Shown here piece after piece: positions 15,939-64,000 of a DNA stretch of 64,000 bases; the stretch's first letter is position 1; each line of letters starts with the position of its first letter. Source of the DNA: Candidatus Omnitrophota bacterium (GTDB taxonomy: Bacteria > Omnitrophota > Gorgyraeia > Zapsychrales > Zapsychraceae); NCBI GenBank assembly GCA_021108075.1, contig JAIORP010000135.1, positions 23,938-87,937 of the forward strand, given 5' to 3'. A program made the translations under genes and the position numbers. The notes under the pieces are model-generated. The model was given only the letters and a program-made list of their open reading frames with translations. It did no database searches and was not told the origin of the DNA.

Positions 15939-15954
15939 ATCTCATCTCCAAATT

Positions 15955-18750: not shown

Positions 18751-18765
18751 AAAGGAATAGCAACG

Positions 18766-24562: not shown

Positions 24563-24571
24563 TAAATTACA

Positions 24572-37423: not shown

Positions 37424-37573
37424 GGCGCGGGGATTGACACTCTTCAGGAATATAAATAGACCTGAGATACTATCCCTTAAATAAAAGACTCCGCATGCAA
37501 AAAAGTATATTTTATATTGCCTCCTTGCTGTTTCGTCCATATAATGAAAGAAAATAAAAACCATGGGGGTCAT

Positions 37574-38713
37574 ATGAATACCAAATTACTCAAACTTACA
37601 CTTAACTTTCTTTTTATATCGCTAGCCGTGCAAATAAACCTAACAACACTGCAAGCCCAACAAAACTTGCCAAATGATGAGCGAATGTCCATCATTGATC
37701 GGGAAATGCATTGCATCCAAGAAAAAATAAATAAGCAGGAAGATCTGCAATGGAGCGATGTTTGCTACACAAACAACCTCAATGCCCAAACCGAAAATGA
37801 TAAAAACGCATATCAACAAAATGTTTCCACCCACATCGAAGAGAGCATCCAATTAGCTCAAGCGACAGGTACTGCCCTCATTTTTACTGAAGAGGATATT
37901 GATACAATTCCCATGGCCGACTTCTCGCAAAAAGAAAATATCATTGAAATCGGTTTTGAAGGCTCTAAGTTTGACTATGAAGAACCCGGGTTAATGACTG
38001 ACAAAGGAAATATGTACGGCATTTTCATCAATTACACCCACCGCTCCAGAAAAAACAAACAAATTAATCATATTAAACAAATCTTTCACGACACCCAGAA
38101 AATTAATGTCTATAAACTCGAAGGTAAATTCAGTGGCGGAGAACTTGACTATGACTCACAGGGAACAGGTTCAAGCACGGGGGCTAAAAATTACATTTTT
38201 GAGGTACGTGGCATGGTCGGATACGACCTTAATTTTAGTGATCGGACGCGATTCACACCCTATATGGGAGTAGGATACCGTTATCTTAAAGATGATGGTG
38301 GCGGAGAGACCACAACCACCGGACATTGGTCCTATGACCGTGAAGCTAATTACTTTTACGCACCGATCGGTGTTGAAGCACATCGCGTTCTTACCCCGGG
38401 ATGGATTTTAGATGTCGTCCTGGAATATAATTGGTTTATCAGTGGTAAACAAAAAAGTCATCTCGGTGATGTCAGTACCAGCTATGAAACACTGACAAAT
38501 GACCAAAGCAGGGGATACGGCCTGCGCGGATCTTTTAAAATAACAAAAGAAATGGAAGGAATGAATTTCTTTATTGAACCATTCTTTCGCTATTGGAATA
38601 TCGAAGATTCAGAGGTCAGCCCTGTCGTTTACAGCGGGGTCGTCGTAGGTGCGGGATTAGAGCCGGAAAACAATTCCACTGAATGCGGAGTAAAATTTGG
38701 AGTCCAGTTTTAG
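37574..38713 (+). CDS. outer-membrane beta-barrel protein
   Basis: Signal peptide ending LQAQQ; alternating aromatic/hydrophobic pattern; C-terminal ...KFGVQF with terminal Phe (OMP sorting signature). Confidence 0.55.
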   Translation: MNTKLLKLTLNFLFISLAVQINLTTLQAQQNLPNDERMSIIDREMHCIQEKINKQEDLQWSDVCYTNNLNAQTENDKNAYQQNVSTHIEESIQLAQATGTALIFTEEDIDTIPMADFSQKENIIEIGFEGSKFDYEEPGLMTDKGNMYGIFINYTHRSRKNKQINHIKQIFHDTQKINVYKLEGKFSGGELDYDSQGTGSSTGAKNYIFEVRGMVGYDLNFSDRTRFTPYMGVGYRYLKDDGGGETTTTGHWSYDREANYFYAPIGVEAHRVLTPGWILDVVLEYNWFISGKQKSHLGDVSTSYETLTNDQSRGYGLRGSFKITKEMEGMNFFIEPFFRYWNIEDSEVSPVVYSGVVVGAGLEPENNSTECGVKFGVQF

Positions 38714-40498: not shown

Positions 40499-41026
40499 AT
40501 GGCTCAAAAGAAAAAAAATAAAATGAAAGTCTCAAAATCCAAAAGTCCCTACATCATTGTTAGAGGTTCTGATATCCACAATAAAGGCGTTTTTTCCAAA
40601 AAAAATATTCCGGGCGGAACGCGCATCATAGAATACATTGGTGAAAAAATCACCAAGAAAGAATCTGAACGGCGAGCTGATCTGCCCCTACAAAAAAACA
40701 AACAAAACCCGGAGTACGGGGCGGTCTACATCTTTGAACTCAACAAACGTTATGACATAGATGGTTATGTTACCTACAACACCGCTCGATACATCAACCA
40801 TTCTTGCTCTCCTAACTGTGAAACTCAAAATATTCGTGGACACATATGGATTATCGCCATAAAAGACATTCCCCGGGGGGGAGAATTAACATACAACTAC
40901 GGTTATGACATGGAAAACTATGAAGATCACCCCTGCCGTTGCCAATCTGATAATTGTATGGGCTATATTCTGGCAGAGGAACACTGGAAAAAACTAAAAA
41001 ACCGGAAACTTTCACTCAAGTCGTAA
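40499..41026 (+). CDS. SET-domain protein (putative protein-lysine methyltransferase) with post-SET Cys motif
   Basis: RYINHSCSPNC (NHSCxPN), GELTYNYGYD (ELTxDY-like), post-SET CRCQSDNC. Confidence 0.8.
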   Translation: MAQKKKNKMKVSKSKSPYIIVRGSDIHNKGVFSKKNIPGGTRIIEYIGEKITKKESERRADLPLQKNKQNPEYGAVYIFELNKRYDIDGYVTYNTARYINHSCSPNCETQNIRGHIWIIAIKDIPRGGELTYNYGYDMENYEDHPCRCQSDNCMGYILAEEHWKKLKNRKLSLKS

Positions 41027-41167: not shown

Positions 41168-42601
41168 ATGCCCATGCAGAAAAATATCCAAATTCTATTT
41201 ATATGTTCACTTCTCTTGATACCAGTCAAGTCTGCCTTTGCTCATAATAACAAATTGGTTCACAGTTTTGTCAAACAGGGCATATTATTATATGAACAGG
41301 GCGAAATCAACAGTGCCATAGACGACTTTAGCCGGGCCCTGTTATTAGATCCCCACAACTCTCAAGCCCAATCACAACTGGTCAAAATCATTTCTCACCC
41401 AAGTCTAGATGCCAGAGGAAGAATAAACCTGCTTGTTTTTGAGGATCTGATCGACTACACAAAAAAACTTAAAGGGAAAATAGACTATGTCCAATTCAAA
41501 AATAATCTGTTAAAAAAAGAACTCTATAGAAAAGGCTACACCAAAGAATCATTAACCAAAGAAATGACCCGCAGAAAAATTTACATCCTTGATGCCCAGA
41601 AAAAAACACAACTCAAAGACAGGGAGATTCTAAAAAATCACGATATCCCCTTAGAAATCGTCAACGCAAACCTTAATTATGAAAAAAAAGAATTAAACAA
41701 CAAACTCATTTCTTTACAAAATACATATAATTTCTTTAGAGAATTGGACAAAGAAATCCCTCTTGATCTTTCTGACTTTGAATTGATTCAAAATGATCAG
41801 ACAACAAAGGCACTAAAAAGCTATTATTCCACACAAAAAGAAGGACTAGAAACCCGGAAACAAGATATCAATGCATTCACACAAGATCTAAAAAATCTCA
41901 AAATGAAATTACGGGCACAAAAAAGATCACACACCCCGGACGACAAAAAAATTACTGACCTGACAGAAGAAATTGTTGATCTATCTTTAAAATTAGCAGA
42001 AAAAGAAAGGGCCCTGACCGATAAGGTCGAAGAAATTTCTTGTTTGAATCAAGAATTTTTGGATCTTCAAGAACGCTTCAAGCTTGAACAAAAAATTATT
42101 AAAGAAAAAAATCTTCACATCAACACATTGCAGTCCGAGATCCAAACGGCGCATGAAAAAACAAACGAATGGCGCGCAGAATTTGATAAAGTCCTGTCGC
42201 AAAGAACAATAAAGCTGTCAGAATTAAATGGAATCATTAAAATTTACAAACAAAAATTAACGTCTACAAATAGCAATATCAAAACACAATCCGCGGATAT
42301 TACCACGCTTGAAGAACAAATAAACACGATTCAACAAGAATTATATGATAAAGATAAATTTATTGAAAGAACCAAAAACGATTTAGCCTATTTTGAAACT
42401 GAACTCATTAGTATTAAAAAAGGAATCCTCAACCTCAAAAGCTATCCCCGGAAAGCCGGGTATTATAATCCTGAAGTCGTCGAAAAAAACATTTTAGAAT
42501 TATATGCTCAAATCCGAGATGCCCAAAAATATTTGTTAAAGCAATTACAGGACTTTGAAAAATTCAAAAATCAAGAAAATCTAACCACAAATAATGAATA
42601 A
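41168..42601 (+). CDS. secreted TPR plus long coiled-coil protein
   Basis: Signal peptide; TPR-like helix pairs (LYEQGEINSAIDDFSRALLLDPHNSQA), then about 350 aa of heptad-rich sequence. Confidence 0.55.
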   Translation: MPMQKNIQILFICSLLLIPVKSAFAHNNKLVHSFVKQGILLYEQGEINSAIDDFSRALLLDPHNSQAQSQLVKIISHPSLDARGRINLLVFEDLIDYTKKLKGKIDYVQFKNNLLKKELYRKGYTKESLTKEMTRRKIYILDAQKKTQLKDREILKNHDIPLEIVNANLNYEKKELNNKLISLQNTYNFFRELDKEIPLDLSDFELIQNDQTTKALKSYYSTQKEGLETRKQDINAFTQDLKNLKMKLRAQKRSHTPDDKKITDLTEEIVDLSLKLAEKERALTDKVEEISCLNQEFLDLQERFKLEQKIIKEKNLHINTLQSEIQTAHEKTNEWRAEFDKVLSQRTIKLSELNGIIKIYKQKLTSTNSNIKTQSADITTLEEQINTIQQELYDKDKFIERTKNDLAYFETELISIKKGILNLKSYPRKAGYYNPEVVEKNILELYAQIRDAQKYLLKQLQDFEKFKNQENLTTNNE

Positions 42602-48391: not shown

Positions 48392-48420
48392 TAGTATGAT
48401 TATACAAAACTCAATAGATA

Positions 48421-48502
48421 ATACCAATTCCATTAAATAATGACCGGAACCAATTCTGCTTTTCAGAATTAAGATAGAACAATTTATTAATAGATTTGGT
48501 AT
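48421..48502. repeat. copy 4 (inverted orientation) of the ~82-nt palindromic repeat family
   Basis: Reverse complement matches copy 1 with substitutions (CCGG for TTTG in the internal loop, T for C once); lies between mutY and surE. Confidence 0.85.
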
Positions 48503-48662
48503 AATTATCCTATTTAAATGCTAGTATTTTCGTTTGAACATCAATAATATCATAATGACCTTGGTGATTATTTAATAAATTTAGTATAATTGTCTGTTTG
48601 TGCAAAATAATGACGAACGGTCTTTCATCAAAACAAACTAATTCTAAATAAGAGGAGTTCTT

Positions 48663-49786: not shown

Positions 49787-50578
49787 ATGAAAAAAATATT
49801 TCATTTTCTGACCATTATTACCTTTATTACCCTATCCGATCATTATGCTTCAGCACAAAAGGTGATCATGGGAGAAATTATTAATGTCAACTATCGATAT
49901 TTAACCGCCTTTTCAGACCTCAGCCGACCATATGTTCAGCCCGGTGACATTGTCGAAATATACAGTGACGGCATGTTCGTAACTTATTTAAAAGTATCCG
50001 AAACTTCAACAGCGATCTCAAAACTCATTCCGATAAAAAGAAAAGGACCATATAAAACGCAGATCAACTTCAAAAAAATCAGCATTGGATTTCAAGTTAA
50101 AAAAATCGATGAAGAGGATGCTTCTTTGTTTATCGAAAAAACAACTGAACAATTACCTCGCGCTATGGAACAACTGCCAGATACGATATCAGAAAACACT
50201 CTTCTCCTTGATGATTCAAACACGACCTTCTCTGATGATTCCTTTAATCAACTCCAGGAAGATTATAATATTCTTAACATTAAATATTCATCTTCTTTAG
50301 AAAGCGCATCCAAATTACAACAAAATTTACAGACTCAAACTCAAAAAATATTTACTTTGCGTGCAGACCTGACAACGTCTCAAGAAAAAATTGAACGACT
50401 GATAAAAAAAAATCAAGAGTTGGAGAGAAAAAATTTAAATAAAGATTTCAGCCAGCAAAAATTATTATATGAAACATGCCAGGACGACCTAACCAATCTC
50501 AATAAAAAAATGTTAATCATTCGGAAAAAACTTCAATATATTTTTAATATCTTAAAAAGAAAGATGGGCAATTTATGA
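49787..50578 (+). CDS. secreted coiled-coil protein, translationally coupled to the giant ORF
   Basis: Signal peptide MKKIFHFLTIITFITLSDHYASAQ; C-terminal half is heptad-rich; its TGA stop overlaps the ATG of the next ORF (ATGA at 50575-50578). Confidence 0.5.
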   Translation: MKKIFHFLTIITFITLSDHYASAQKVIMGEIINVNYRYLTAFSDLSRPYVQPGDIVEIYSDGMFVTYLKVSETSTAISKLIPIKRKGPYKTQINFKKISIGFQVKKIDEEDASLFIEKTTEQLPRAMEQLPDTISENTLLLDDSNTTFSDDSFNQLQEDYNILNIKYSSSLESASKLQQNLQTQTQKIFTLRADLTTSQEKIERLIKKNQELERKNLNKDFSQQKLLYETCQDDLTNLNKKMLIIRKKLQYIFNILKRKMGNL

Positions 50579-53500
50579 GAACACACATAAGATTACTTTC
50601 TGTACTCCTATTACTATTAACGTTTCCTTCCACAACAATTCTCGCGGACACAAACACAGATACGATTAAGTTGTTAAGGACATCCATACAAAGTAAAGAC
50701 ACCCTCATTGAAGACTTAATGGATGAGAAGGATACATTGTCAAAACAACTTGAAATCCAGCGCGAAGAAAAGAAAAAATTTGAAAAAGAACTTATCCTTC
50801 TGCAAAAAAACATTGGAAAACTTGATGATGCATCACGTTCCGGTCAAGATGATGCTGCAAATTTGCGTCTTCAAAAAGAATCTTTAATGCGCCAGCTTAA
50901 TAAAGTCAGGAAAGAAAAAGTCAGGCTGGAAGACACGATATCCAAGTTGAATAAAAGTATGGATATTACCGACTCGAACGTTAACAGCAAGGTCGACGCA
51001 GCAACCTCGGCATTAAAAACCCGTGTACAAGAATTAAAATTACAACTTATCTCTTTGGAAGAAAAAATCGAAAACTCAAACACCAAACAATCAAAACTAC
51101 AAAAAGAAATCCACAAATTAGAAAACGAAAAAGCGTCCTTAACAAAAAAAATTACGCTCCGTGACAAGAATATAAGCACCCTTAAAAGACAACTCGTTGA
51201 TAAAATCAACGCGGTCCGTAAGCCGCTACAAAATGAACTCAGACAAACGAATGCTGCTTTAGCGATATCCAACAATGTCGTAAGGGACAAACAACTCGAG
51301 GTCTCGGAACTGAACCGGAAATACGAATTGACCTTAGTGAACATTAGAGAACTCAATAATAAGCTGGATAAAAAAGACATCGAAATTGAAGAACTCAACA
51401 ACAAAATTAAATCCATTCAAATACAGACTTCAGAAAAAATTTCATCGATCAGCGATCAAGCTAAAAAAGACATTGAAACGCAACGCGGCAAAGTCCAGTC
51501 CAAAAATAAAACACTCCAGGAAGAAATCTCCGATTTAAGTACTGACAAAAAAGATCTGCAGAAACAAATTTCAGACAAAAAAGAAGCCGTACGATTGATC
51601 AGGCGAGACAGAAAAACACTACAAACAAAATTAGACCAATTACTAATCCGCAATAAAGATTTGTTAAATAAGACAGCCAAACTTCAAAATGACATTAATG
51701 CCATTGAAGATTCCATAAAGGACAAAATTTCTGAGGCGAAACAACCCCTTTTAGGAGAAATAAAAAAATTAGAAGACAACATAAAGACTTTAAGTCGGCA
51801 CATGAATAACAAACATGAAAAAATCGACCTGGTCCTTGAAGAAAACAAAAGGCTGAAAACCCAGCTTGATAAAATTGTCACAATTAAAAATAATTATTCA
51901 AAAGATAATGCGTTATTAAAAACCCAGCTTAAACTAAACTCCGATAAAGTTGCCGTTCAAATTTCTTCCGTTAAAAAACCACTTGAAAAATCCATCCAAT
52001 CACTTCAAGAAGAATTAAATTCATTGCGAAAAACGAATGAAGTCAAAGGGCAAGAGATCAAGGCTCTGGAACAAAAAAAATCAAAATTAAAAACAGATCT
52101 CGATAGATTATCAACGGGAAATACAACCCTCAGTCAAAAAGTTAACAAATTAGAACTTTCGCTAAAACAAGAAAAAAAATTGCAGTCCGAAAACATCGAA
52201 GATATACAAAGTTCCTTACTAGATAAAATAATAACAATGGAGAAACAATCCAACGCCCTAAAAGCAACGGTTAAGGAGAAGGGATCATATAACCTGAAAA
52301 TTGTCGGTCAAAATAAATCCCTCACAAAAAAAGTCGCGAAGCTGGTAGAAGAAAAAACCGGAGCGTTTGAAAACCTTAAAAACATTCAAGTTCGATATAA
52401 CGAGATCAAATCAACATTAGACAAACGCATCAAAGTTGCAACCAAAGCATTAACTGAAGAAGTTCAACAATTAACAGTGCAACTGAAAAGTGCCCAATCC
52501 GGCCTTGAAGGAACAGACACTAAAATCATTCGTTTAAACAACGAAAAGAACAAACTGCAGGTCGAATTATCCAGGGAAGAAAACCAGCGACGTCAACTTG
52601 AAGCAAACATCACCGAACTGAAAAATCAACTGATACAAGTTCAAAAAGAACTGCCCAAAAAAATCAGCAGTGTCCGAAGCTCATTAGGCAAGAAAATTAA
52701 AGAACTCGAAGCTGAATTAAACACTCTGAATAAAGGAATCGCCGAACAGAAGACGAAAGTCTCAAATTTGTCGGCCGATAAATCTTTACTCCAAAATAAT
52801 TTGAAAAAAATAACGACAGAAAAGGGAATCATAGAACAAGAACTCCGACAACTTCAAGTTAGATTTAAAGGCCTGAACGACACTCTGCCACAAAAACTAT
52901 CTAAAATTGAACAACCACTCAAAACTGAAATCAATAAGGCGAATAAAAAAATAACCGAGCAAGAGGAAACAATCGCGAGCTTGTCATCCAAAAAATCTTT
53001 GCTCCAGAATGATTTAAAAAAGACAGAGACGGGAAAGAAAATCATAGAGCAAGAACTTTTGAGAATCAAAAATCAATTAAAAGGCCTGAATGACACCCTG
53101 CCGCAAAAAATATCTAAAGCCGAACAACCACTCAAAACTGAAATTAATACGGCGAAAAAAAGAATAACGGAGCAAAAAAAGACCATCTCTACTTTGACAT
53201 CCGAAAAAATCATGCTTAAAAATAATTTAAAAAATATAGAAACAGAAAAAGGATTCATAGAGCTAGAACTCCGGCAACTCAAAAATAAATTTAAAGGCTT
53301 GAACGACACTCTGCCACAGACGATATCTAAAGCCGAACAACCACTCAAAGAGCAGTTAAATACAGCGAACAAAAGGATAATGGAGCTAAAAAGAATCATC
53401 GCGAATTTGTCATCCGAGCAATCTTTCTTCCAGAATGATATAAAAAAAATAGAGACAGAAAAAGAACTCGTAAAAAATGAGCTCCAACAACTCAAAAACA

Positions 53501-56500
53501 AGTTAAAAGGATTAAAAAACGCTCTTCCTCAGAAAATATCATCAGTCCAGAAACCCCTAAAAGAAGAAGCCTCAAGACTAAAGGAACAATTATCAAACAC
53601 AGAAAATTCTTTGCATATAAAACAAGAACGAATTAATAATTTGACGATTCAGAAAAAAAATTTAGACAATAACATTACCCGCCTCAACACGGAAAACAGC
53701 AAGTTAAAAAGTGACATCATCAATCTTCGCAGACAGTTGGCCGGTCTAGAAGACAGTATCCCACTAAAGATTGAATCGGCAAAAACTCCCTTTGAAAAAG
53801 ACCTCTCCGACTTAAAAAATCAATTGCGGGAGGTTAATAATACAGTTACACGTAAAAACAAAAAAATTAAGACATTAAGTCGAGAACATCAATATTTACA
53901 GAATCGAATAGCGGATAAAGAAAAAATCATCAGCGCGCTGGAGCAGGATGTCGTTTCTTATAAAGATGAAGTCCTCAGCACTCAAAACTCATTGGATTCT
54001 AAAGTAAAGCAAGAAAGAATCCCTCTTGAAGCAAAAATCACGCAATTAAAGACAGAACGTCAACAAGCCGAACTAAAAATCGAAGAATATACCATTCTCA
54101 TAAAAACATTACATGAAAGAATAGAAGAGAACGCTTTAAAATCAAAAGAAATCACTACGGAAAAAAAAGACCTGGAAATAAATTTATCTAAAGTCACCGA
54201 AGAGTTCAACAACAATAAAAAAATTGTCGCTGATAAGATCAAAAACGCAAAAGATCCGCTCAAGAAAACAATCGCCATTTTAAACAAAAAAATCATCGCG
54301 ATTGAGAATGCTATCCAATCCAAGCAAACAACCATCAACAAAGTCACCCAAAAAAATGAAACATTAACGCGCCAGTTTGAAGATATCAAAAAAACAAAGA
54401 ACTCCATATCTCTTGATCTCCTGAAAATACAAAAAGAATTTGATTCGCTTCACGTATCCATTCCCCAAAAAATGATAGCTGCCAGGAAGCCACTGGAGTT
54501 GGAGATTGAGCAACTCACACAAAGGCTGAAAAAAGCGTCTACGTCTGTCAAGGCGAAACAACAGGAACTTAATCAGACGACCAAAGATAAATCACAACTG
54601 CAGATCAATCTGTCCAGAACAAAATCTACGGCCGATAAATTAGAATACGAATTAAAAAATATTCAGAATGCACTTAAAAGCTCAAAGAATGATATACCGA
54701 TAAAAATTTCTGAAGCCCTTGCGCCGCTAAATACTAAGATCAATGCGTTAGAAAAAGACTTAGCACTGTCAAAAAGCAAACTGCAATCAAAAAAAGAAAC
54801 GATAAAAAACCTTCAAAATGAAATGCTTTCATTGAACAAAAAACTTTCGCAAACACAGACTGAAAAAACCAATTTAGCCTCGAAAAACACAGCTTTAAAC
54901 GATGAAATAAAAGCTCTCGAAGAGGCCATCGTAGCAGAAGTCAAACAAGTGCAAATACCATTGGAAAAAACGATAAAATCATTGCAGGTCGCCCTGAAAA
55001 GCATGCAAAATAAACTATCGGACAATAATACTAATTTAAATAGAATTAATAAAGAAAAAGAAACCGTCACGAATAATCTAAACCAGCAACAACAGAACAA
55101 AGCGTCTTTACAAAAAAAAATTGACGGGCTTAAAACTACAATTGATAATCTAAAAAAAACGTTGCCAACTCAAATTGACCAGGCCAAGTCTCCGTTATTA
55201 AATGATATCAACAAACTTCAACAAAAATTATCCCAGGCAAATAGTACCATTTCACATAAATCTGACAAAATATCCGCACTTAAGCGGGACCACCATATTA
55301 TTAATGTTCAATTAAACAATTTACAAAGCGAAAAAGCTGAATTAAATAAACAGATAGAGAATATGCTTGAACGCGTCAAGCAAGCAGAACTGTCGGTGCC
55401 TCAAAAAATTCAAAAAGTTGAAAAACCGTTGAATAATGAAATCCGTGAGCTAACCGAACAGGTTCTGAAGACAAAAACCCTTATTCAAGTGAAAAATGAG
55501 GCCTTAGAAGTCTTATCAAAAAACAAAAACGCATTGGAATCATCACTCAAAAAAGTCCGGCAAGAAAAAAAACAATTGGCCCAAAAAATAACGGAATCTG
55601 AAGAACTCATTAAAGAGAAGCAGCGTTCCATTGGCAGCTTGAAACAGAACAACTACCAATTAAACAGCAAAGTAAGCAAATTAAATAGAAACCATGAATC
55701 CCTGCAAGCCAATTATGACAAAATACAAAAAGAGCTAAGACGAGCTAAAGCATCCACACCCAAAGAAATCTCTTCTGCCATCCAACCCCTGAACAAAAAA
55801 ATTGAAAGTCTCCGGAACGAACTGGACAAAGCCAAAGAAGATCTAAAAGAAAATCATGGCGCAATATCTTCAACCCATCAAGAAAAATCCTCAATGTTAA
55901 CCAAAATCAATGTATTGAACCGTGATAACAAAATCTTATCCCAGGAAATAAACAATGTAAAAACTAAGCTGCAAGAAGCCAACAATAGCATTTCCAATCA
56001 AATTTCCAGAGCGACGATTCCCTTAGAAGAAAGTATAAACAACATGACCGAAAAGCTGGCAAAAACTGGAGACGCCCTATCTAAAAAGCAAAATGAAATT
56101 GACGAACTTATTCAGGACAAAAACCAGCTTAACCACAAACTGAAACAGCTTCGAATGGAAAGAGAAGACGCAGGAAAAAGGCTGACGAGACTGCAGGATA
56201 AATTCGCAATAGCACACACGTCCAGTCAACAAGAAACGATAAAAGCGCAAAAGAAGCATCGAGAAAAGATAAAAAAGTTGGAGCATGAATTATTGGAAAT
56301 GAATGCTGCTGTTCTGGCGAAAGAAAAAAAACTCGCATCTTTGGAACAAAACAATCAAAATCTCAATCTCCTATTACGCAATTTAAGAAAAGAGAAGTCA
56401 ACCCTGAATAAGGAGACCGTTAATCTTCTGAACAAAATTAAACTTACTGAAGCGGCAGTCCCTCAAATGATTCAAATGACCAAAAGGCCTTTGAAAGAAA

Positions 56501-59500
56501 GAATCCAGACATTGACGGCGAAAGTGAAACAAACAAATGATTTAATCAATCAAAAAGAAGATTTGCTTAAACAAACTACAAAAGAAAAATTATTATTATC
56601 ACAAAATTTGACCAAGGCTCAAGAAACACAAAAGAATTTATCACAGGAAATCATTACCTCAAATAAACTCGCTCTCAAACATAAAGCGGATCTAATAAAA
56701 ATTGAGCAAGAAAACCTTGGACTGAAAAACGAAATAAGGTCCACACAGGAAACATCCGGAAATCTGGAGAAAAAAATTGAAAGAATCACGCAAGAGCTGC
56801 TTAACAGCAGAAATAACACAGCGAAAATTACCGCGAAAGAGATCTCTAAACTAACCGATCAAATCACCGCATTTAAAGACCAGTTGAAAAATTCATCGGT
56901 TAAATTGAAACAAAAATCGGAAAATATCCTTGCGGTCCAGCGCGAGAAGGAAGGCCTGACAACAAAAGTCGAGTCACTGACGGATGAAAAAAACTCCTTG
57001 GAACAAAACATCTCTGTCTTAAAATCAAAAATCGCACACACGAATACGGATCTTGAAAAAAAGGCGGAAACAATAAATCTGTTTAACAACAACAAAGACG
57101 CACTCGAATCTAAACTAAATACCGCTATAAATGAAAAAAATAAACTGAAACAAGAGGTTAAAGTTCTACGAACAGAAATTTTCCAAATAAAAAAGCAAAC
57201 CCCTATGCAAGTTGAAGAAGCGAGGCAGCCATTGAAAAAAGCCCTCAGGCATAAAGAGAAAGCAATCGCAGATGCCAATCGGGCTACAAAAGAAAAACAA
57301 ACGCGTATTAATCAGCTGTTACAAAACGACCAAGACCTAACGCAAGAAGTCCAACGCTTGAAACAAATACAGGTCACATTAAACGATAGCAACGCAAAAC
57401 TGAAAAAAAGCATGGACAAGGTCTCTAAGTCTATTCCAGCAAAAATATCAGAAGCCAAATTCCCCTTAGAGCAAGCCATTAAAATGCTTAAAAATAAATT
57501 ATTGAATATCGAAAACGAGTTAGTCAATAGACAAAAAAAGATTGACGCTCTGAATAAAGAACGTTCAGGAACTCAGACAAACCTCCAACAACAGATTAAG
57601 GTAAAACAAAATCTGTCAAAACAGATTGATGCGTTAAATAAGCAATACGCGTCTGTCCAAAAATCTATACCGGACAAGATTAAAACAGCTAAACGGCCTT
57701 TAGAGAAAAAAATTGAATCGCTTAATAAACAAATGATTGAACAGTCTGAAATCATCCGTCAACAAGAAAATAAACTCGCAGGGTTATCATCAAAAAATCA
57801 AAACATGACAGATTCTCTAAGCGTGATCAAAAATGAAAAATTGTCGCTGGAGAACCAAATAAACCAATTATTAAGCGCTAACAAAAAATTAAACACTGTC
57901 CTTCCAGAAAAAATCCGTCAAGCCAAACAACCCCTTGATAAAAGGATCAAAGACCTCAACCTCCAACTTGGGCAGTCACATAAATCTTTAACTGTTAAAG
58001 AGCAGGAAATAGTTAAATATAAAAATAAATCGCAACAGCTATCAACCCAAATCTCTAAATTGCAAAACGAACATAATCAACTGTTAACTCTCAACAAAGA
58101 CCTCAACATAAAGCTCGTCAGCCTCCAAAAAGAATTGCCTGATAAAATCGCCAGGATTAAAACGCCGTTGGAAGCCAATATCGCACAAATTTCTCAAAAG
58201 CTTTCTAACGCTCAAACACTAGTCAAAAAACAACAGGCGAGCATTGACCTGTTAACCAAACAACGCGACATTACCAGCTCAAATCTCAACAAGCTCAAAG
58301 ACCAGGAACATCAAACCCAAAAAGGATTAAAAGCTAAACAGGAACTATTAAGCCAGAAAAACAATTCGCTTAAGTTGCTCTCACAGGAAAACGCCCGGCT
58401 CCAGGATAAAATCGCTTCCATCAACAACGAAAAAGACCTTCTTGGAAAAAAACTGTCTCAAGTAGAACAAAAAATTCTTGAAACACAAAAAAAGATACCT
58501 GAAAAAGTCAATTTAGCCACAGCACCATTGAAACAAAAAATACAAAAACTCATCAACGAATTGGAACAAACGCAAACCTCCATTAAACTAAAAGATAATA
58601 AAATAACACAGCTCACACAAAAAAGTAAAGACATTTCACAACGGCTTGAAGAAACGCAGCGCCAAAAACAGGCTGCAGATAAAAACTTAACTCGGTTAGC
58701 TCAAGACAAAGAAAACCTTGAAAAAGTTGCGATGCCTAAAGCTCTTATTCTAGCAAAAATACCTTTTCAGGATAAAATTAAACAATTATCAGAAGACATT
58801 CAAAACAGTCAGGATACAATGACTGATAGAGAACGCACAATCGCCCAGTTAAGAAAGGAAAAAGCGGCGATTAACTCCAAGTTAAAAGGAATATCTGACG
58901 ATAAAAAGAATCTCCTCGCTACAATTAATAACTTGCAGAATGAACTAATTAACTATAAAAAATCCATGCCCCAACAATTATCGAAAGCCCGTGATCCTTT
59001 GGAGAAAAAAATAACATTTCTTCAAAATCAAATCGACAATACTTTTGACGAATTACAAGACAAACTCTTAATCATAGCGGAACTTGATGACGACATTGAT
59101 TATCTGAAGAAATCTTTAAACAACTCTACAAATCAAAATATCCAGGATAAAAAGTCCATTGAGGCCTTAAAGAGAGATCTTATTCGTAACAAAGAAAAAA
59201 TGGCAAATGAATTGCATAACACAGTCAGCCCTTTAAATGCCAGTTTAAACATCTTAGAAAAAAAACTGATTACCACCGAAGCGGCAGTTATTAAAACACA
59301 AAAAAACAACAAAAATCTGATTGTTGCAAATAACACGCTTCAGAATGAAATCAAAAATTCTGTCCAAAAGATAACGGAATTATCTGACAAACTTAAATCT
59401 GAGAAACAAAAAATCACAAAACTGCAAAGTGAAATTCCTAACCGAATCAAAGAAAAAACAAACCCATTGACCGAGCAAATATCAACTTTAAACAAATCAA

Positions 59501-62500
59501 TCGCTTCATATAAAAAGAATATCGAAAAGCAATCCATCGACAATCAAAAACTCCGTGAAATCAACAACCACACGAAAACAGCGCTCGAAAAAGAAATTGA
59601 GTTTAAAAAGAAAATTCAAACAAATTATGGTAATTTGAAAAAAACGATAAACGAACTTGAACAGAAACAACCTGAAGAGATAATAGCCGCTACAACCCCC
59701 CTAAACAACAGAATTAAAGAAATACGAAAAAAATTATCCGCATCCAGCCAAAATATTGCCAGTAAAGATAAAACAATTGAAGAACTGCGCATCACAAATA
59801 AAAAACTCGCAAATGATTTAAACTCATCGCAAAAGAACAATATTCTTTTAAATAAAAATATAGTTATGTTTGAAGAACAAATTGACAAAATAAATAATGA
59901 GATTCCTTCCAAACTATCGACTGCGACCAAACCTTTGAAGAAAAGGATCCTTGACCAAAAGAATACACTCACAGAGCTTTCAACGTCGGTCGACAGACTC
60001 AACCAGGATTTAAGCGACACTCAAAAACAAAGAAACCAATTGACATCAGACTTTGTTCAGTTAAAAGAGAAAAATCAAGAACTGCTTAAATTAATTGATG
60101 AATTAAGAAGCACCTTGTCGTTAACCAAGGCATCGATCCCGAAACAATTAGAATCCGCGCAAAACCCCTTAAAAAAAGAAATCAAAAAACTTCAGGAACA
60201 ATTCCAATCAACACAATCCGAGTTCCATAAAACACGGGATAACTACGGAAAGTTGAAAATTGAAAATAAAAAATTATCTCAGACATTATCCCGAACTGAA
60301 TCACAAAACAACGCCTTAGCCGGCCAGCTTCAAGACATCACACAAAAGTTAACCGTATTACAAAAAGTGCTCCCTAAAAGAGTGTTTGAAGCGAAGCTTC
60401 CTCTCGAAGAAAAATTGAAGAATTGGAAGGATAATTTCGCTAAAATGGAAACGGAATTAAAGGACACACTGGCCTTATTGCAAAAAGACCGTGACAGTAA
60501 CAATAAACTGAAAAAGGAATTCACAGCGTTGTCCAACAACAATAATAATCTCGAACAAGTGAATGCAAGTCTCAAAAATAAATTAGCTCAACTGCAAGGT
60601 TCACTCCCTAAAAAAATTAACGATGCACAGAAAACACTTAAGGTTAAACTTCAAAATCTAACAGAAACCTTGCAGGACCGCGATACGCAACTCAACCAGA
60701 AATCAAAAAAAATCACAGCACTAAATAATCAAATCAAAGCACTCACCCAGGACAACACTGACCATTCAACCATCGTCCGATCCCTGGAAGAAAAAAATAA
60801 AAAAATCATAAAAAATAACAATATCCTCAGTCTGCAGATTGAACAATGGCAAAAAGACTACCCAAACAAGATCAAACAGGCCCAGAGGCCATTAGAGGGC
60901 CAAGTTGAACAATTAAAGCAGCAATTTGCAAATGAGGCCGAAAAGAACAAACGAAATCAGGAACTCATTGCAAAATTAGAACAGGATGTCACCAACTCAC
61001 GAAATAATATTGTGCAAAACGAAGCAACGATCAAAATCCTAACATCCGAGAAACGAAACTTAGAAAACAGATATGCCAGTTTAAACGACTCTATCCCTCA
61101 AAGGATATCGAAATCCAAAACTTCTCTAGAGCAAATGATCCATAAACTAAAGCAATCCAACGACGAGTTGAACACAACGGCTAAAAGAAAAGACCGAACG
61201 ATCAATCAACTGACCGATCAATCAAAGGAACAAAGCCAAAAAATTGATTCTTTTAGATCTAAAAACTCTGAATTGCAAAAACAGCTCAATAATAAAATTA
61301 CTGAATACGCGACAAAAAGATCTGAACTTTCCAAAAAATTAACAGCAGCTGAAGCCACTGTCAAAGAGCAAACAGATAAAGAGAAAAAATTAAAAACACG
61401 GCTCCAAGCTTTAAAAAACATTAATGTGGAAACGCAGAAAAAATTCTCAACAACAATCAAGGAAAAAACACAAATAGATCAAAAGTTTGCCGAGATCAGC
61501 AAGAACCTGTCTATCAAAAATAATGCCATTAACCAATATAAGACTACGGTCAGTAAACTTAGGGATTCCTTACGTAATTTAGAAACCAACAAAGAGAATC
61601 TAGCACGGCGGGTGACAGAACTAGAAAAGCTAAATGACACCATCAAAACATCATTGCCTGAAAAAGTTGAAAGTGTAAAAGCCCCGCTTCTTTCAAAAAT
61701 CAATCAACTCGAGACTGCGATAGAAGAAAACACAAATGAACTATCAAGGGCAAAGACAACCCTGAAAACTTTGAAAGATGAAAATAAAGCCCTCAACAAA
61801 ATCCTCGAAAGCGTTAAGAGAGACAATTCTCTCTTGTCACAAAAAACAGATTCATTTAGAAAAGAAATCGACAAATCCAAAACCCAGGGCGAACTCGAGA
61901 TCAACCAAATAACAAGCGATCTCAGAAATAAAATTCAAATCATCCAGGAAAAAGAAAAACTAATTAAGCAGCTTCAATCTGACTTCAGAAACCTTAAAAA
62001 CGACCACGACCAGTTGGAAAAAAAATACCGCAACACAATTCGTGAGTTTGACGGCGCGCGAATTAAATTAGAACAGTATAAAGAAAAAATTTCGATGGAG
62101 ATAGAAAAGGCACGTAACCCCATATTAAATCAACTCAATCAAGTTAAAAGCGAACTTATATCCACGATGAGCGCCTTAAAAGAAAAAGATGAAAATATGA
62201 CAAGCATGAATAGAAATTTATCTTCATTGAACACAAAATACGATCAACTCAATAAAAAAAAAATCGCTTTTGAGGATCAACTCAGCCAATCAATCACCCG
62301 TTACCAAAAACTAGAAAGTGAAACACAAAACACGATTGACCGGACAAAAAGCACGCTCCATTCAGATATCAACAAGTTAGAAAAAGCCCTGGTAGTTAAA
62401 AGAGCCGAAATATCGGCAAAACAGAATAATATTCTTGAAAACGAAAAACAAATCAGCTATTTAAAGAAGGATCTTCAATCACTCAACGATAAAAATCAGA

Positions 62501-64000
62501 CACTCCTGTCAAAGATCAACGGGCTCAACGAATCTCTTAGAGAGAGCGGAACCTCACATAAACTTGACATAAAAAAAATTCAATCTAAATATCAATCCGA
62601 ACTTCAAAAGATCACCCGTAACCTCCAACTTTCCCAGGATACTGTTTCCCATAAGGACAACCAAATAGCTCAGCTTAATCGCACACTTAACGATCTGAAG
62701 AAAACTGTTTCAACAACACAGAAAAAAATTAAAGATTCTTCCGAAACCATATCCATGATTGAAAATCAGTATAAAAAAGATAACCAAAAAATTCAAAACC
62801 AATTCAACGAAAAAATTAACAGGCTACAGAATGACTTAAAGGAACATAATAATAAAATCAGCCTTACCAATAAAAAACATACTGGTCAAATTTCTGAATT
62901 AAAGACAACAATCAGTAAAAAAGACGATCAAATCAATTCTGTTACAAAATCGCTCAATCAATTAAACACAGAACTCACCGAGAACCGGAACAAAACTAAG
63001 CAATTTGGCCTGGACATACAAAAATGGGAACGAAAATATCAAGAATTGCAGAATTCCACAAAAGCCCAGGTTCAACAGTCAAGAATGCCGTTTGAACGTG
63101 AAATTCGAAATCATAAAAACAAACAAATGGAATGGGAACGGACCGCAAAGAAAAAAGAATCTGAGATCAATTCCATCAATAACCAACTAAAAGAGTTATC
63201 CTCTAAATTCGAATCCGAACAAAAACAAAACCAACTATTATCGGCTCAAATAGCACAATGGCAATCTCAATACAACAAGCTCACCAAGCACACGACACAA
63301 AAGATGACCAATTTTAAAAACGATCTCCAGAACGAATACAATTCATTGAAAAACGACCTGACCCTTAAGGAAAATAGTTTAAAAAAATACTTAAAACAGC
63401 TTTCAACGCTCAAAAATGACAAAAAAAAACTTACGGCTCAGTTTGCAGAAGCAAACAAAAACTCTATAGATTTCCAAAATAAATTAAATAAAGCCGAGCA
63501 GACACTGTTTTCTAAAACGAAAAAATATGAGGATCAACTATCTAAAATTAAGTCGCAATTTAAACAACAACTCAGCCAGTCCTCACGGTCGTTACAAGAA
63601 GAAATCAGCGCTCTTAACGATCAAGTCTGCCAGTATAAAAAAGAAATTAAAAAAAACAACGGGCAGTCCGGAGAACTATCCGCCTTAAACAACAAATTGA
63701 CATCTCAAATCAACAAACTAATAAAAGAGAACAAATCGGTAACAGACCTCATAGCAAAACTCAAGACAGAAAAAATTAATACCGAACAGTCCATAAAAAA
63801 GAAATTGTTCCAATCAGAATCTGCATTACAAAAAGAGATATCCAAACTTAAATTAGAACTGTCCAAATATCATGATCAATTGCAACACAAAAAATCTTCC
63901 ATCAGCAAACTCGATGGTCATTTCCAGGAGACAGAAAATCGACTACATGCAGCTATGCGTGAAAAGAAGCTTCTGCAACAACAGATCAAAGAACTGATAC
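50575..64000 (+). CDS. giant secreted periodic coiled-coil protein (more than 4475 aa within the window; 3' end beyond window)
   Basis: Reading triplets from ATG 50575, I found no stop through 64000. N-terminal signal peptide MRTHIRLLSVLLLLLTFPSTTILA. The rest is K/E/Q/L/N-rich with a recurring Pro-containing linker [LIV]PxK[IL]xxAxxPLxxxI roughly every 234 nt. The track shows no + strand ORF over this 13 kb because there is no stop; only short antisense ORFs appear. Confidence 0.8.
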   Translation, partial: MRTHIRLLSVLLLLLTFPSTTILADTNTDTIKLLRTSIQSKDTLIEDLMDEKDTLSKQLEIQREEKKKFEKELILLQKNIGKLDDASRSGQDDAANLRLQKESLMRQLNKVRKEKVRLEDTISKLNKSMDITDSNVNSKVDAATSALKTRVQELKLQLISLEEKIENSNTKQSKLQKEIHKLENEKASLTKKITLRDKNISTLKRQLVDKINAVRKPLQNELRQTNAALAISNNVVRDKQLEVSELNRKYELTLVNIRELNNKLDKKDIEIEELNNKIKSIQIQTSEKISSISDQAKKDIETQRGKVQSKNKTLQEEISDLSTDKKDLQKQISDKKEAVRLIRRDRKTLQTKLDQLLIRNKDLLNKTAKLQNDINAIEDSIKDKISEAKQPLLGEIKKLEDNIKTLSRHMNNKHEKIDLVLEENKRLKTQLDKIVTIKNNYSKDNALLKTQLKLNSDKVAVQISSVKKPLEKSIQSLQEELNSLRKTNEVKGQEIKALEQKKSKLKTDLDRLSTGNTTLSQKVNKLELSLKQEKKLQSENIEDIQSSLLDKIITMEKQSNALKATVKEKGSYNLKIVGQNKSLTKKVAKLVEEKTGAFENLKNIQVRYNEIKSTLDKRIKVATKALTEEVQQLTVQLKSAQSGLEGTDTKIIRLNNEKNKLQVELSREENQRRQLEANITELKNQLIQVQKELPKKISSVRSSLGKKIKELEAELNTLNKGIAEQKTKVSNLSADKSLLQNNLKKITTEKGIIEQELRQLQVRFKGLNDTLPQKLSKIEQPLKTEINKANKKITEQEETIASLSSKKSLLQNDLKKTETGKKIIEQELLRIKNQLKGLNDTLPQKISKAEQPLKTEINTAKKRITEQKKTISTLTSEKIMLKNNLKNIETEKGFIELELRQLKNKFKGLNDTLPQTISKAEQPLKEQLNTANKRIMELKRIIANLSSEQSFFQNDIKKIETEKELVKNELQQLKNKLKGLKNALPQKISSVQKPLKEEASRLKEQLSNTENSLHIKQERINNLTIQKKNLDNNITRLNTENSKLKSDIINLRRQLAGLEDSIPLKIESAKTPFEKDLSDLKNQLREVNNTVTRKNKKIKTLSREHQYLQNRIADKEKIISALEQDVVSYKDEVLSTQNSLDSKVKQERIPLEAKITQLKTERQQAELKIEEYTILIKTLHERIEENALKSKEITTEKKDLEINLSKVTEEFNNNKKIVADKIKNAKDPLKKTIAILNKKIIAIENAIQSKQTTINKVTQKNETLTRQFEDIKKTKNSISLDLLKIQKEFDSLHVSIPQKMIAARKPLELEIEQLTQRLKKASTSVKAKQQELNQTTKDKSQLQINLSRTKSTADKLEYELKNIQNALKSSKNDIPIKISEALAPLNTKINALEKDLALSKSKLQSKKETIKNLQNEMLSLNKKLSQTQTEKTNLASKNTALNDEIKALEEAIVAEVKQVQIPLEKTIKSLQVALKSMQNKLSDNNTNLNRINKEKETVTNNLNQQQQNKASLQKKIDGLKTTIDNLKKTLPTQIDQAKSPLLNDINKLQQKLSQANSTISHKSDKISALKRDHHIINVQLNNLQSEKAELNKQIENMLERVKQAELSVPQKIQKVEKPLNNEIRELTEQVLKTKTLIQVKNEALEVLSKNKNALESSLKKVRQEKKQLAQKITESEELIKEKQRSIGSLKQNNYQLNSKVSKLNRNHESLQANYDKIQKELRRAKASTPKEISSAIQPLNKKIESLRNELDKAKEDLKENHGAISSTHQEKSSMLTKINVLNRDNKILSQEINNVKTKLQEANNSISNQISRATIPLEESINNMTEKLAKTGDALSKKQNEIDELIQDKNQLNHKLKQLRMEREDAGKRLTRLQDKFAIAHTSSQQETIKAQKKHREKIKKLEHELLEMNAAVLAKEKKLASLEQNNQNLNLLLRNLRKEKSTLNKETVNLLNKIKLTEAAVPQMIQMTKRPLKERIQTLTAKVKQTNDLINQKEDLLKQTTKEKLLLSQNLTKAQETQKNLSQEIITSNKLALKHKADLIKIEQENLGLKNEIRSTQETSGNLEKKIERITQELLNSRNNTAKITAKEISKLTDQITAFKDQLKNSSVKLKQKSENILAVQREKEGLTTKVESLTDEKNSLEQNISVLKSKIAHTNTDLEKKAETINLFNNNKDALESKLNTAINEKNKLKQEVKVLRTEIFQIKKQTPMQVEEARQPLKKALRHKEKAIADANRATKEKQTRINQLLQNDQDLTQEVQRLKQIQVTLNDSNAKLKKSMDKVSKSIPAKISEAKFPLEQAIKMLKNKLLNIENELVNRQKKIDALNKERSGTQTNLQQQIKVKQNLSKQIDALNKQYASVQKSIPDKIKTAKRPLEKKIESLNKQMIEQSEIIRQQENKLAGLSSKNQNMTDSLSVIKNEKLSLENQINQLLSANKKLNTVLPEKIRQAKQPLDKRIKDLNLQLGQSHKSLTVKEQEIVKYKNKSQQLSTQISKLQNEHNQLLTLNKDLNIKLVSLQKELPDKIARIKTPLEANIAQISQKLSNAQTLVKKQQASIDLLTKQRDITSSNLNKLKDQEHQTQKGLKAKQELLSQKNNSLKLLSQENARLQDKIASINNEKDLLGKKLSQVEQKILETQKKIPEKVNLATAPLKQKIQKLINELEQTQTSIKLKDNKITQLTQKSKDISQRLEETQRQKQAADKNLTRLAQDKENLEKVAMPKALILAKIPFQDKIKQLSEDIQNSQDTMTDRERTIAQLRKEKAAINSKLKGISDDKKNLLATINNLQNELINYKKSMPQQLSKARDPLEKKITFLQNQIDNTFDELQDKLLIIAELDDDIDYLKKSLNNSTNQNIQDKKSIEALKRDLIRNKEKMANELHNTVSPLNASLNILEKKLITTEAAVIKTQKNNKNLIVANNTLQNEIKNSVQKITELSDKLKSEKQKITKLQSEIPNRIKEKTNPLTEQISTLNKSIASYKKNIEKQSIDNQKLREINNHTKTALEKEIEFKKKIQTNYGNLKKTINELEQKQPEEIIAATTPLNNRIKEIRKKLSASSQNIASKDKTIEELRITNKKLANDLNSSQKNNILLNKNIVMFEEQIDKINNEIPSKLSTATKPLKKRILDQKNTLTELSTSVDRLNQDLSDTQKQRNQLTSDFVQLKEKNQELLKLIDELRSTLSLTKASIPKQLESAQNPLKKEIKKLQEQFQSTQSEFHKTRDNYGKLKIENKKLSQTLSRTESQNNALAGQLQDITQKLTVLQKVLPKRVFEAKLPLEEKLKNWKDNFAKMETELKDTLALLQKDRDSNNKLKKEFTALSNNNNNLEQVNASLKNKLAQLQGSLPKKINDAQKTLKVKLQNLTETLQDRDTQLNQKSKKITALNNQIKALTQDNTDHSTIVRSLEEKNKKIIKNNNILSLQIEQWQKDYPNKIKQAQRPLEGQVEQLKQQFANEAEKNKRNQELIAKLEQDVTNSRNNIVQNEATIKILTSEKRNLENRYASLNDSIPQRISKSKTSLEQMIHKLKQSNDELNTTAKRKDRTINQLTDQSKEQSQKIDSFRSKNSELQKQLNNKITEYATKRSELSKKLTAAEATVKEQTDKEKKLKTRLQALKNINVETQKKFSTTIKEKTQIDQKFAEISKNLSIKNNAINQYKTTVSKLRDSLRNLETNKENLARRVTELEKLNDTIKTSLPEKVESVKAPLLSKINQLETAIEENTNELSRAKTTLKTLKDENKALNKILESVKRDNSLLSQKTDSFRKEIDKSKTQGELEINQITSDLRNKIQIIQEKEKLIKQLQSDFRNLKNDHDQLEKKYRNTIREFDGARIKLEQYKEKISMEIEKARNPILNQLNQVKSELISTMSALKEKDENMTSMNRNLSSLNTKYDQLNKKKIAFEDQLSQSITRYQKLESETQNTIDRTKSTLHSDINKLEKALVVKRAEISAKQNNILENEKQISYLKKDLQSLNDKNQTLLSKINGLNESLRESGTSHKLDIKKIQSKYQSELQKITRNLQLSQDTVSHKDNQIAQLNRTLNDLKKTVSTTQKKIKDSSETISMIENQYKKDNQKIQNQFNEKINRLQNDLKEHNNKISLTNKKHTGQISELKTTISKKDDQINSVTKSLNQLNTELTENRNKTKQFGLDIQKWERKYQELQNSTKAQVQQSRMPFEREIRNHKNKQMEWERTAKKKESEINSINNQLKELSSKFESEQKQNQLLSAQIAQWQSQYNKLTKHTTQKMTNFKNDLQNEYNSLKNDLTLKENSLKKYLKQLSTLKNDKKKLTAQFAEANKNSIDFQNKLNKAEQTLFSKTKKYEDQLSKIKSQFKQQLSQSSRSLQEEISALNDQVCQYKKEIKKNNGQSGELSALNNKLTSQINKLIKENKSVTDLIAKLKTEKINTEQSIKKKLFQSESALQKEISKLKLELSKYHDQLQHKKSSISKLDGHFQETENRLHAAMREKKLLQQQIKELI
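52840..53691 (+). repeat. four tandem 213-nt (71-codon) repeats inside the giant ORF, the first three nearly identical at DNA level
   Basis: Units begin at 52840, 53053, 53266 and 53479 (…ELRQLQVRFKGLNDTLPQKLSKIEQPLKTEINKANKKITEQ…). Confidence 0.8.

Follow-up and report, generated by a model that had tools for sequence, protein, structure and literature searches.

The stretch analysed here is 64,000 nucleotides (nt) of contig JAIORP010000135.1 from a Candidatus Omnitrophota bacterium (assembly GCA_021108075.1, positions 23,938 to 87,937 of the forward strand), called the window throughout. It ends inside a giant gene, a real and very long one, which encodes an exported, highly periodic α-helical protein of at least 4,554 amino acids (aa). 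The whole chain is built on a lattice of 78-residue units, and modelling indicates that it forms an extended, continuous coiled-coil rod and not an array of folded-back bundles. On balance, we consider it probable that the protein is a Sec-exported, presumably two-stranded fibre associated with the cell envelope, acting with a small partner encoded directly upstream; its location and function are what we infer from the evidence below.

Reading frame, repeat unit and rod model

Translation of 50575–64000 (+) gives 4,475 codons with zero stops, as the earlier note on this sequence had read, and the chance of a frame this open is ~1e-134 given the base composition of the region. The ATG at 50575 is the earliest possible start, with an in-frame stop nine codons upstream. 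On the parent contig (ENA ERZ26872899 NODE_29; 88,176 bp, 13x coverage) the same gene is called at 4,554 aa. Extending the contig, which had been advised as a check, thus keeps the frame open to 4,554 codons, and the contig ends, ~237 nt past the window, before any stop is reached; the gene spans at least 13.66 kb. The window product has a mass of 515 kDa, a pI of 9.8, 1.5% Pro and one Cys, and Lys, Leu, Asn, Gln and Glu are abundant. At contig level the chain mass is ~524 kDa (~0.52 MDa), so that the previous description as ‘megadalton-scale’ would fit an oligomer only. Nor do the relatives bear out the suggestion that the full gene could be very much larger, since the complete ones measure 1,774–4,143 aa and the window copy, with its end missing, is already the longest. 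When tiled against the complete relatives, the giant shows similarity at the repeat level only, so its missing length is not estimable from them, and none of the retrieved proteins overlaps its 3′ part at high identity. The minus-strand open reading frames (ORFs) across the gene, which had been called Phe/Leu-rich, are Ser/Leu/Phe-rich shadows of a purine-rich coding strand (AT skew ~+0.4).

The features of the giant gene, and the partner gene that precedes it, are as follows.

49787–50578, + strand: partner gene, 263 aa; its stop overlaps the giant start as ATGA.
50575–64000, + strand: giant ORF, 5′ part; 4,475 codons in the window, 4,554 on the parent contig.
50575–50646, + strand: signal peptide, aa 1–24 MRTHIRLLSVLLLLLTFPSTTILA, predicted cleavage before D25; read from the sequence, sole Kyte-Doolittle hydrophobic segment.
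50647–51264, + strand: family-conserved N-terminal block, aa ~25–230, up to the first PL anchor at aa 217; from alignment with the N-termini of relatives.
52885–53523, + strand: three 71-aa units of 10 heptads plus 1 residue each; Tandem Repeats Finder (TRF) array at 52765–53510, copy number varies.
53524–60369, + strand: regular 78-aa lattice, aa 984–3265, IPxKIxxAxxPLxxxI followed by heptads; from motif, periodicity and hidden Markov model (HMM), with AlphaFold2 (AF2) on aa 2287–2540.
59227–59280, + strand: single-copy family landmark, aa 2885–2902, SPLNASLNILEKKLITTE, corresponding to PLQASIRFLEKRLL in relatives.
60370–64000, + strand: C-ward region, aa 3266–4475, heptad-patterned with sparse, irregular proline anchors; the unit HMM still matches.

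Three measures define the repeat. First, the self-identity of the protein peaks at lags of 78, 156, 71 and 234 aa. Second, its 66 prolines include 26 pairs spaced exactly nine residues apart, and there are 24 occurrences of the pattern [LIVMAT]P-x8-P[LFI], where shuffled sequences would be expected to give 0.07. The spacings of these proline anchors (71, 78, 120, 156 aa and so on) equal the DNA spacings of 213, 234, 360, 468 and 702 nt, in agreement with the 213, 231–237, 360, 468 and 702 nt listed earlier. Third, an HMM built from 21 clean 78-aa units matches the giant 61 times and covers 95% of the chain, which is therefore built on the lattice throughout, with about 57–61 modules of 78 residues. 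The lag peaks and the HMM bear out the ~78-aa units (71-aa in one block) and the linker motif [LIV]PxK[IL]xxAxxPLxxxI that had been described. The lattice is sharpest at aa 771–3,428 and degenerates toward both ends; within 53524–60369, occasional units measure 120, 156, 247 or 79 aa.

The core positions of the unit fall at columns 0, 4, 7, 11, 15, 18, 22 ... 71, 74, with spacings of 4,3,4,4,3,4,3,...,3,4. By these spacings, each 78-aa unit consists of eight canonical heptads and two consecutive hendecads, and the resulting 22 core positions per 78 residues account for a sharp peak at 3.543 in the Fourier spectrum of hydrophobicity. Both hendecads coincide with the ‘linker’ IPxKIxxAxxPLxxxI, each carrying one proline next to a core residue, and the hydrophobic seam is continuous through the motif and never broken. 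Hydrophobic residues make up ~31% of the chain and nearly all of them lie on this seam (~28% of positions). In the regular part, the unit lengths of 71, 78, 85 and 120 are all 7n+1, apart from a single 79; thus, units change length by whole heptads. The window copy is strongly basic (net +274), and this is not conserved, as net charge ranges from −59 to +274 in the family. Charge analysis of the giant gave no long-range periodicity of the kind that would suggest myosin-like staggered packing.

AF2 was run on aa 2287–2540, i.e. three units and the next motif, as a monomer with a five-row paralog alignment. It returned a single helix over residues 2–253, with a mean predicted local distance difference test score (pLDDT) of 88.5 that stays at ~88 at the motifs. 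Because the seam is unbroken, the length variants are whole heptads and the model is one helix, the giant is best described by a continuous rod, and the resemblance to Ebh or spectrin helical-bundle fibres proposed in the earlier note does not hold up. In such a fibre, each 78-aa unit would fold back into a two- or three-helix bundle, the bundles would follow one another head to tail in the manner of spectrin or Ebh (FIVAR-GA), and a single chain would make a much shorter and thicker rod. Regular units with a proline ‘linker’ do look superficially like bundle repeats, and in some units of the giant and its relatives a Gly lies ~40 residues past the PL anchor. Nevertheless, we regard this arrangement as improbable. 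The core spacing runs on through the linker (...3,4,4,3,4,4,3...), with hydrophobic residues inside the motif, and there are no conserved loop positions within the unit. Whole-heptad variants would mismatch the helices of a bundle, a stripe that takes up only 22/78 positions is too narrow for bundle cores, and the AF2 helix does not fold back. Pfam Spectrin, FIVAR and GA gave no matches.

The core composition bears on how the chains of the rod associate. At ‘a’ positions, Ile accounts for 35% and Leu for 32%, and at ‘d’ positions Leu accounts for 44%. Polar core columns are conserved (Lys at 32, Asn/Lys at 43, Lys/Asn at 57), and Ala occupies the middle core position of the second hendecad in 16 of the 21 units. 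By the standard rules for coiled coils, β-branched residues at ‘a’, Leu at ‘d’ and buried Asn/Lys favour parallel, in-register dimers. Dimeric hendecad cores require small residues, with Ala as the expected signature (PMC9858780). Given Ile/Leu at ‘a’, Leu at ‘d’, core Asn/Lys at fixed columns and Ala in the hendecad core, the giant chains probably pair as a parallel, in-register, two-stranded coiled coil.

At 0.1485 nm per residue, one unit is 11.6 nm long and the window-encoded part is 665 nm if fully extended. Most Omnitrophota cells are 0.2–0.3 µm across (PMC10066038). The extended rod would therefore measure at least 0.66 µm, or two to three typical cell diameters, and would have to either run tangentially, over about the circumference of one cell, or extend far outside the cell.

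Family, partner and place in the cell

A HMMER search of the unit profile against 1.84 billion representative proteins matched 1,413 proteins at E<=1e-3, of which 123 reach <=1e-10 and 17 reach <=1e-30. The lower-ranked matches are generic coiled coils; the top ones carry 10–50 unit matches each. By sequence, the giant belongs to a coherent, undescribed family in Omnitrophota and unclassified metagenome contigs, so the proposed search of uncultivated lineages with the unit profile did recover an unnamed family with an Omnitrophota member. The complete members are P0151 (1,774 aa), P0027 (2,529 aa), P0011 (3,097 aa), the L089 ORF (3,115 aa, on Ga0209211_10000691), P0007 (3,913 aa) and P0005 (4,143 aa). 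The last is VAX34868.1 from a hydrothermal vent metagenome, which was automatically labelled ‘Exonuclease SbcC’; the only other named member is MBF0331236.1, a hypothetical protein of Candidatus Omnitrophica. The ORFs at loci L087 and L089 were recovered from metagenome contigs, and contigs of up to 218 kb carry complete relatives of the same architecture.

Several features are shared across the family. The N-terminal block aligns with P0002, P0005, P0007, P0017, P0008, P0027 and P0011 (MAFFT, first 260 aa, 11 members). The units of the relatives measure 78 aa, with other spacings such as 29, 71, 120 and 127, also 7n+1. Among 152 near-complete units from 11 other members, Pro is found in 82% at column 10 and 61% at column 1, Leu in 88% at column 11, Ala/Val in 77% at column 7 and Lys/Arg in 62% at column 32. 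The landmark PLQASIRFLEKRLL occurs once per protein in P0003, P0005, P0011, P0015, P0017 and P0027, and also in L089 (APLEKSVRFLEKRLL). In the giant it reads SPLNASLNILEKKLI at aa 2885, and the pattern PL[QE]xS[ILV]x[FI]LEK[RK]L[LIV] is matched once, at aa 2891. No stretch of the family is better conserved. The landmark sits at different distances from the two protein ends, and it may serve as a unique docking site or as the trigger site at which the coiled coil nucleates. The alignment of this landmark was used as an anchor to retrieve loci L087–L090. At the protein end, 12 relatives have an amphipathic helix, ...E[ILV]xxA[LM][DE]L[IL]..., preceded by a short non-helical stretch.

The closest ortholog, P0002 (1,870 aa, truncated), has the same signal peptide and is 63% identical to the giant with zero gaps over 770 + 674 (1,444) residues. 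In layout, the aligned stretch differs only in the number of 71-aa units, six in P0002 against three in the window. A gapless alignment at this identity argues for strong constraint on length and register. The other members are ~23–27% identical to the giant, at the repeat level.

Neither Pfam nor NCBIfam has a model for this family, and no complete member has a Pfam match; scans of both databases found no enzymatic or head domains in the giant or the complete relatives. Sequence searches of the PDB retrieved nothing beyond generic coiled coils, and the literature searched holds no mention of the family. The ‘helix-rich protein’ model from Mycoplasma, TIGR04523, gives the giant 281.5 bits against a cut-off of 270, a score summed over nine partial stretches of a protein six times the model length, and the complete relative at L089 scores 179 bits. 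We judged the match to be compositional.

The N-terminus of the giant has the classic n-h-c organisation, MRTHIR / LLSVLLLLLTF / PSTTILA followed by D, and aa 5–26 form its sole segment with a 19-residue Kyte-Doolittle average (KD19) >=1.6. Residues 1–24 look like a Sec signal peptide, so that the cleavable peptide named previously (…TTILA/DTNTD) stands as a prediction made by eye and hydropathy. The N-terminal hydrophobic segment is likewise unique in five of the six complete relatives (P0005, P0007, P0011, P0027 and P0151), and the L089 ORF falls just under the hydropathy threshold although it starts MKNSQRLFYVSLGFIFLLSF. With small residues at −3/−1, this signal-peptide-like N-terminus is conserved family-wide and is present on the partner too.

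The 263-aa partner consists of a signal-peptide-like N-terminus, a ~85-aa β-rich domain, a linker and a ~90-residue C-terminal helix. AF2, run on the single sequence, is confident for the helix at 171–261 only, with pLDDT <50 in the β domain. The partner has no Pfam, NCBIfam or PDB relative, and the β-rich domain none that was detectable. The ATGA overlap with the giant start, pointed out in the earlier note, is confirmed at the 49787–50578/50575 junction, and by this overlap the two genes are translationally coupled. The arrangement recurs at L087, where the gene order is surE, a 278-aa gene and the giant gene (P0005). Across its whole length, the 278-aa protein is 36% identical to the partner (E 1e-34); the stop of its gene and the giant start share an identical ATGA, and the two SurE proteins are 55% identical. 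The pairing with a small secreted coiled-coil partner that had been proposed thus extends to a distant relative. At L089, a 49-aa ORF (3436–3585) overlaps the start of the complete 3,115-aa member by 11 nt. It is similar to the partner in the C-terminal tail alone (…KLEIMTNLMEG…) and represents a partner that is either minimal or decayed.

An alternative that keeps the coiled coil but not its export would be a cytoplasmic or inner-membrane-tethered protein, SMC/Rad50/SbcC-like or intermediate-filament-like, whose N-terminal segment is irrelevant or an uncleaved anchor. The signal peptide cleavage is, after all, predicted, P0005 carries its SbcC label, and there are NCBIfam SMC and Rad50 and Pfam Filament matches. 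These matches, however, are all below curated cut-offs and reflect coiled-coil arms only: in the giant, TIGR02168 scores 403 bits against 567, the Rad50 models score <=125 bits against >=700, all at arm positions, and PF00038 (Filament) scores 26.4 bits against 40 in one stretch. The SbcC label stems from such sub-threshold NCBIfam matches to SMC/Rad50 arms. Neither the giant nor any complete relative has an ATPase head, hinge or zinc hook, and Pfam SMC_N and AAA have no match in the giant. Together with the family-wide conservation of the N-terminus and its presence on the partner, this leaves the cytoplasmic alternative a low probability.

Exchangeable apolipoproteins and other lipid-binding repeat proteins have proline punctuation and 11-residue periodicity as hallmarks. 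The giant shares both, and its window copy is strongly basic; its proline-punctuated 11-mer helices might therefore wrap a membrane, vesicle or other hydrophobic surface. We think this very improbable, as hendecad spacing takes up only 22 of the 78 residues per unit and the remainder follows the canonical heptad, where ‘a’ is Ile/Leu and ‘d’ is Leu. Moreover, the hydrophobic stripe is narrow, Pfam Apolipoprotein has no match and the charge is not conserved in the family.

For the Sec-exported fibre that we favour, the following scheme may be drawn. The heptad segments would form a left-handed supercoil and the proline-marked hendecad pairs would be essentially unsupercoiled, alternating every 11.6 nm. 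The short, straight, proline-marked segment in each period could be a register mark, a hinge or a docking site. After Sec export, the rod would remain with the envelope, as a fibre that gives structure or serves as a tether; it would lie in or around the periplasm or else be exposed at the surface. The long C-terminal helix of the partner might pair with one conserved end of the rod, and its β domain might anchor, cap or chaperone the rod.

Omnitrophota are ultra-small, uncultivated and probably host-dependent, and very long proteins are thought to mediate their contacts with other cells. Two functions are conceivable in this setting, namely a circumferential periplasmic ‘exoskeletal’ hoop that shapes or stiffens the ultra-small cell, or a long surface tether that captures and holds host cells. 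It is tempting to go further and see in the family an unrecognised bacterial envelope fibre: a two-stranded, Sec-exported cable, marked by prolines every 11.6 nm, that exceeds in length the nanobacterium producing it and serves either as periplasmic hoop or as surface tether, with the partner as dedicated anchor or cap. As a complete picture this is speculative, and we would not expect all of it to be right.

Several points weigh against the fibre proposal. The location, oligomer state and function of the giant are all read from sequence and models. The two-stranded state follows from textbook residue rules, and the AF2 helix is supportive, not decisive, because a monomer run with a five-row alignment tends toward a single helix for any coiled coil. 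The signal peptides were called by eye and Kyte-Doolittle hydropathy without a trained predictor. No determinant for outer-membrane translocation or anchoring was found, which leaves surface exposure unexplained, and a rod longer than the cell is awkward in the periplasm. The C-terminus of the window copy is missing, as the contig ends within the gene. The association with the partner comes from few loci (the window, L087 and the tail-like ORF in L089, which has this 49-aa remnant instead of a full partner), and the neighbourhood beyond the partner is not conserved between loci.

Assembly and gene neighbourhood

The only tandem array at the DNA level lies at 52765–53510 (746 nt; 213 nt x 3.5 copies, 74% match by TRF), and wholesale assembly collapse, which the earlier note wished to see checked, is therefore unlikely. 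Five other assemblies (two ENA, three Logan) match the beginning of the gene, over up to 2.4 kb, at 99.95–100% identity. The Logan contigs end inside the 71-aa array and the two ENA contigs stop just upstream of it; since independent short-read assemblies break in or near this block and P0002 has six units against three, the copy number here is uncertain. From the same comparison, the block appears to expand and contract by whole units. Two of the contigs, L004 and L005, end at window positions 52938–52967.

A shorter, 652-aa ‘complete’ version of the gene on contig L003 was considered as its real end and rejected. This 3.7x contig switches at window position 52530 to unrelated metallophosphoesterase-like sequence (L003 4647–5745), and the join is most likely a chimera. 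The spurious 652-aa protein, P0001, sits in public protein collections.

That the long ORF is itself an artefact, a mis-join or collapse of shorter repeat-containing genes, is hardly credible: the parent contig does end inside the gene, other assemblies do end in or near the 71-aa array and L003 does join its beginning to something else, but the repeats are diverged in DNA outside the 746-nt array, the five independent assemblies agree over the first 2.4 kb, P0002 is collinear and gapless, and complete relatives of 1.8–4.1 kaa (thousand aa) share the architecture.

Upstream of the partner, the window carries htrA and genes for a DUF368-type undecaprenyl phosphate translocase, a HAD protein and NAD kinase, then mutY and surE. 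The neighbours at other loci encode an HD-GYP regulator, a GHMP kinase, an epimerase, a GT4 protein and an ExeA-like ATPase. The window SurE is 57–60% identical to the SurE of four Omnitrophota metagenome-assembled genomes, the best matches among 185,579 species representatives (next <=45%), which bears out the lead to this phylum that the earlier note had given. Downstream of surE, these four nearest genomes have ordinary genes and no giant gene.

A ~88-nt intergenic element is present in four copies, 93–97% identical, at 48419–48506 (+), 18663–18752 (+), 15951–16038 (−) and 3189–3276 (−). The element has no Rfam match; it reads as an imperfect palindrome (ATACCAATTCCATTAAATAA ... TTATTAATGGATTTGGTAT), holds a hairpin at its centre and closes with an extended −10-like TGGTATAAT. 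One copy lies ~150 nt upstream of surE, the gene before the partner/giant pair. Possible identities are a shared promoter/operator cassette and a small mobile element.

Other genes of the window are recorded here for completeness. A second exported coiled-coil protein of 477 aa is encoded at 41168–42601 (+), 8 kb upstream of the giant and adjoining htrA; behind its signal peptide, a TPR-like N-terminal region leads into ~250 aa of coiled coil. At 7551–11312 (+) lies the gene for a 1,253-aa hybrid sensor kinase with an N-terminal 4Fe-4S and [FeFe]-hydrogenase large-subunit-like domain followed by PAS, HisKA, HATPase, receiver and Hpt domains, which may be a redox or H2 sensor. The product of 13824–15350 (+) is an ATPase core of the type II secretion system (T2SS)/type IV pilus type (T2SSE) fused to a C-terminal response-regulator receiver domain. 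The window also encodes a 175-aa SET-domain protein, unusual in bacteria (40499–41026, +), a 398-aa protein with a weak autotransporter β-domain match of 35 bits (37517–38713, +), and a glycogen-type cluster (23396–29074, +) with a GT4/GT5 glucosyltransferase, a DUF4912 protein, a GH57 branching enzyme and a second GH57-like protein.

Comparison with known systems

The units of Ebh from Staphylococcus aureus and of spectrin are discrete three-helix bundles of ~106–126 aa. Like the giant, these proteins are very large, exported (Ebh), α-helical, made of many tandem units and presumed fibre-like. They differ from it in that its helix and core seam are continuous, AF2 shows no fold-back and FIVAR, GA and Spectrin domains are absent.

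Exported parallel coiled-coil rods are known from streptococcal M proteins, Thermotoga Omp-α, the stalks of trimeric autotransporters (e.g. BadA) and archaeal tetrabrachion, where they contain non-heptad irregularities and serve as spacers, stalks or adhesins. All of these are held by a defined anchor (LPXTG, SLH/transmembrane or β-barrel). Pfam and hydropathy found none of these anchors in the complete family members, and the complete L087 and L089 ORFs have no YadA-type β-barrel or head/neck domains and end in the amphipathic helix. With the exception of BadA, these rods are 10–100 times shorter than the giant, and all lack a 78-aa proline-marked module.

Scy and FilP of Streptomyces, which are cytoskeletal and DivIVA-related, are bacterial rods in which, as in the giant, the coiled coil regularly leaves the heptad pattern. 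Both form dimers, with long hendecad stretches and cores in which the hendecads are Ala-rich (PMC9858780), and the unit of the giant likewise has Ala at a hendecad core position. Unlike the giant, they are cytoplasmic, without a signal peptide, have a DivIVA-like N-terminus, consist nearly entirely of hendecads without proline punctuation and do not exceed ~1,300 aa. Pfam and NCBIfam scans gave no sequence relationship between the two.

The giants published from Omnitrophota (‘Archaeovorin’/dockerin type, multi-enzyme and tandem-repeat scaffolds) come from the same phylum and are also very long and mostly exported or membrane-associated. They are 10–147 kaa, with many transmembrane (TM) helices, C39/S8 peptidase, dockerin, TSP3, lectin or enzyme domains and β-rich novel folds, and have T2SS-like loci upstream and PilZ genes downstream (Seymour 2023; West-Roberts 2023; 2026 complete-genome catalogue). 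The threshold for a giant gene in that work is an ORF >20 kb or >=10 kaa, beside which the window gene, its end missing, measures at least 13.66 kb or 4,554 aa and the complete relatives reach at most 4,143 aa; the word ‘coiled’ is absent from both Omnitrophota giant-gene papers. The window protein, in contrast, is all-α, ~4.6 kaa, has neither a TM segment beyond the signal peptide nor a Pfam domain and is flanked by surE and the partner. Upstream it has surE, mutY and the NAD kinase, HAD and htrA genes and no T2SS-like locus, and it does not share the architecture of these published giant genes. Since the Omnitrophota giants described so far are only of the TM-rich, multi-domain kind, this locus adds a class of domain-free, all-helical rods that carry a signal peptide alone, with a 78-residue module of strictly conserved length and a dedicated partner.

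Taken together, the giant represents a fibrous coiled-coil protein family that is new, as is its repeat architecture, and lies outside the Scy/FilP and exported-stalk families. Its module is a natural, regular, proline-marked alternation of heptads and hendecads, repeated ~60 times, and the protein would rank among the longest continuous bacterial coiled coils. For the biology of Omnitrophota, the family provides a concrete candidate, easy to recognise, for a fibre, a tether or a scaffold of the envelope.

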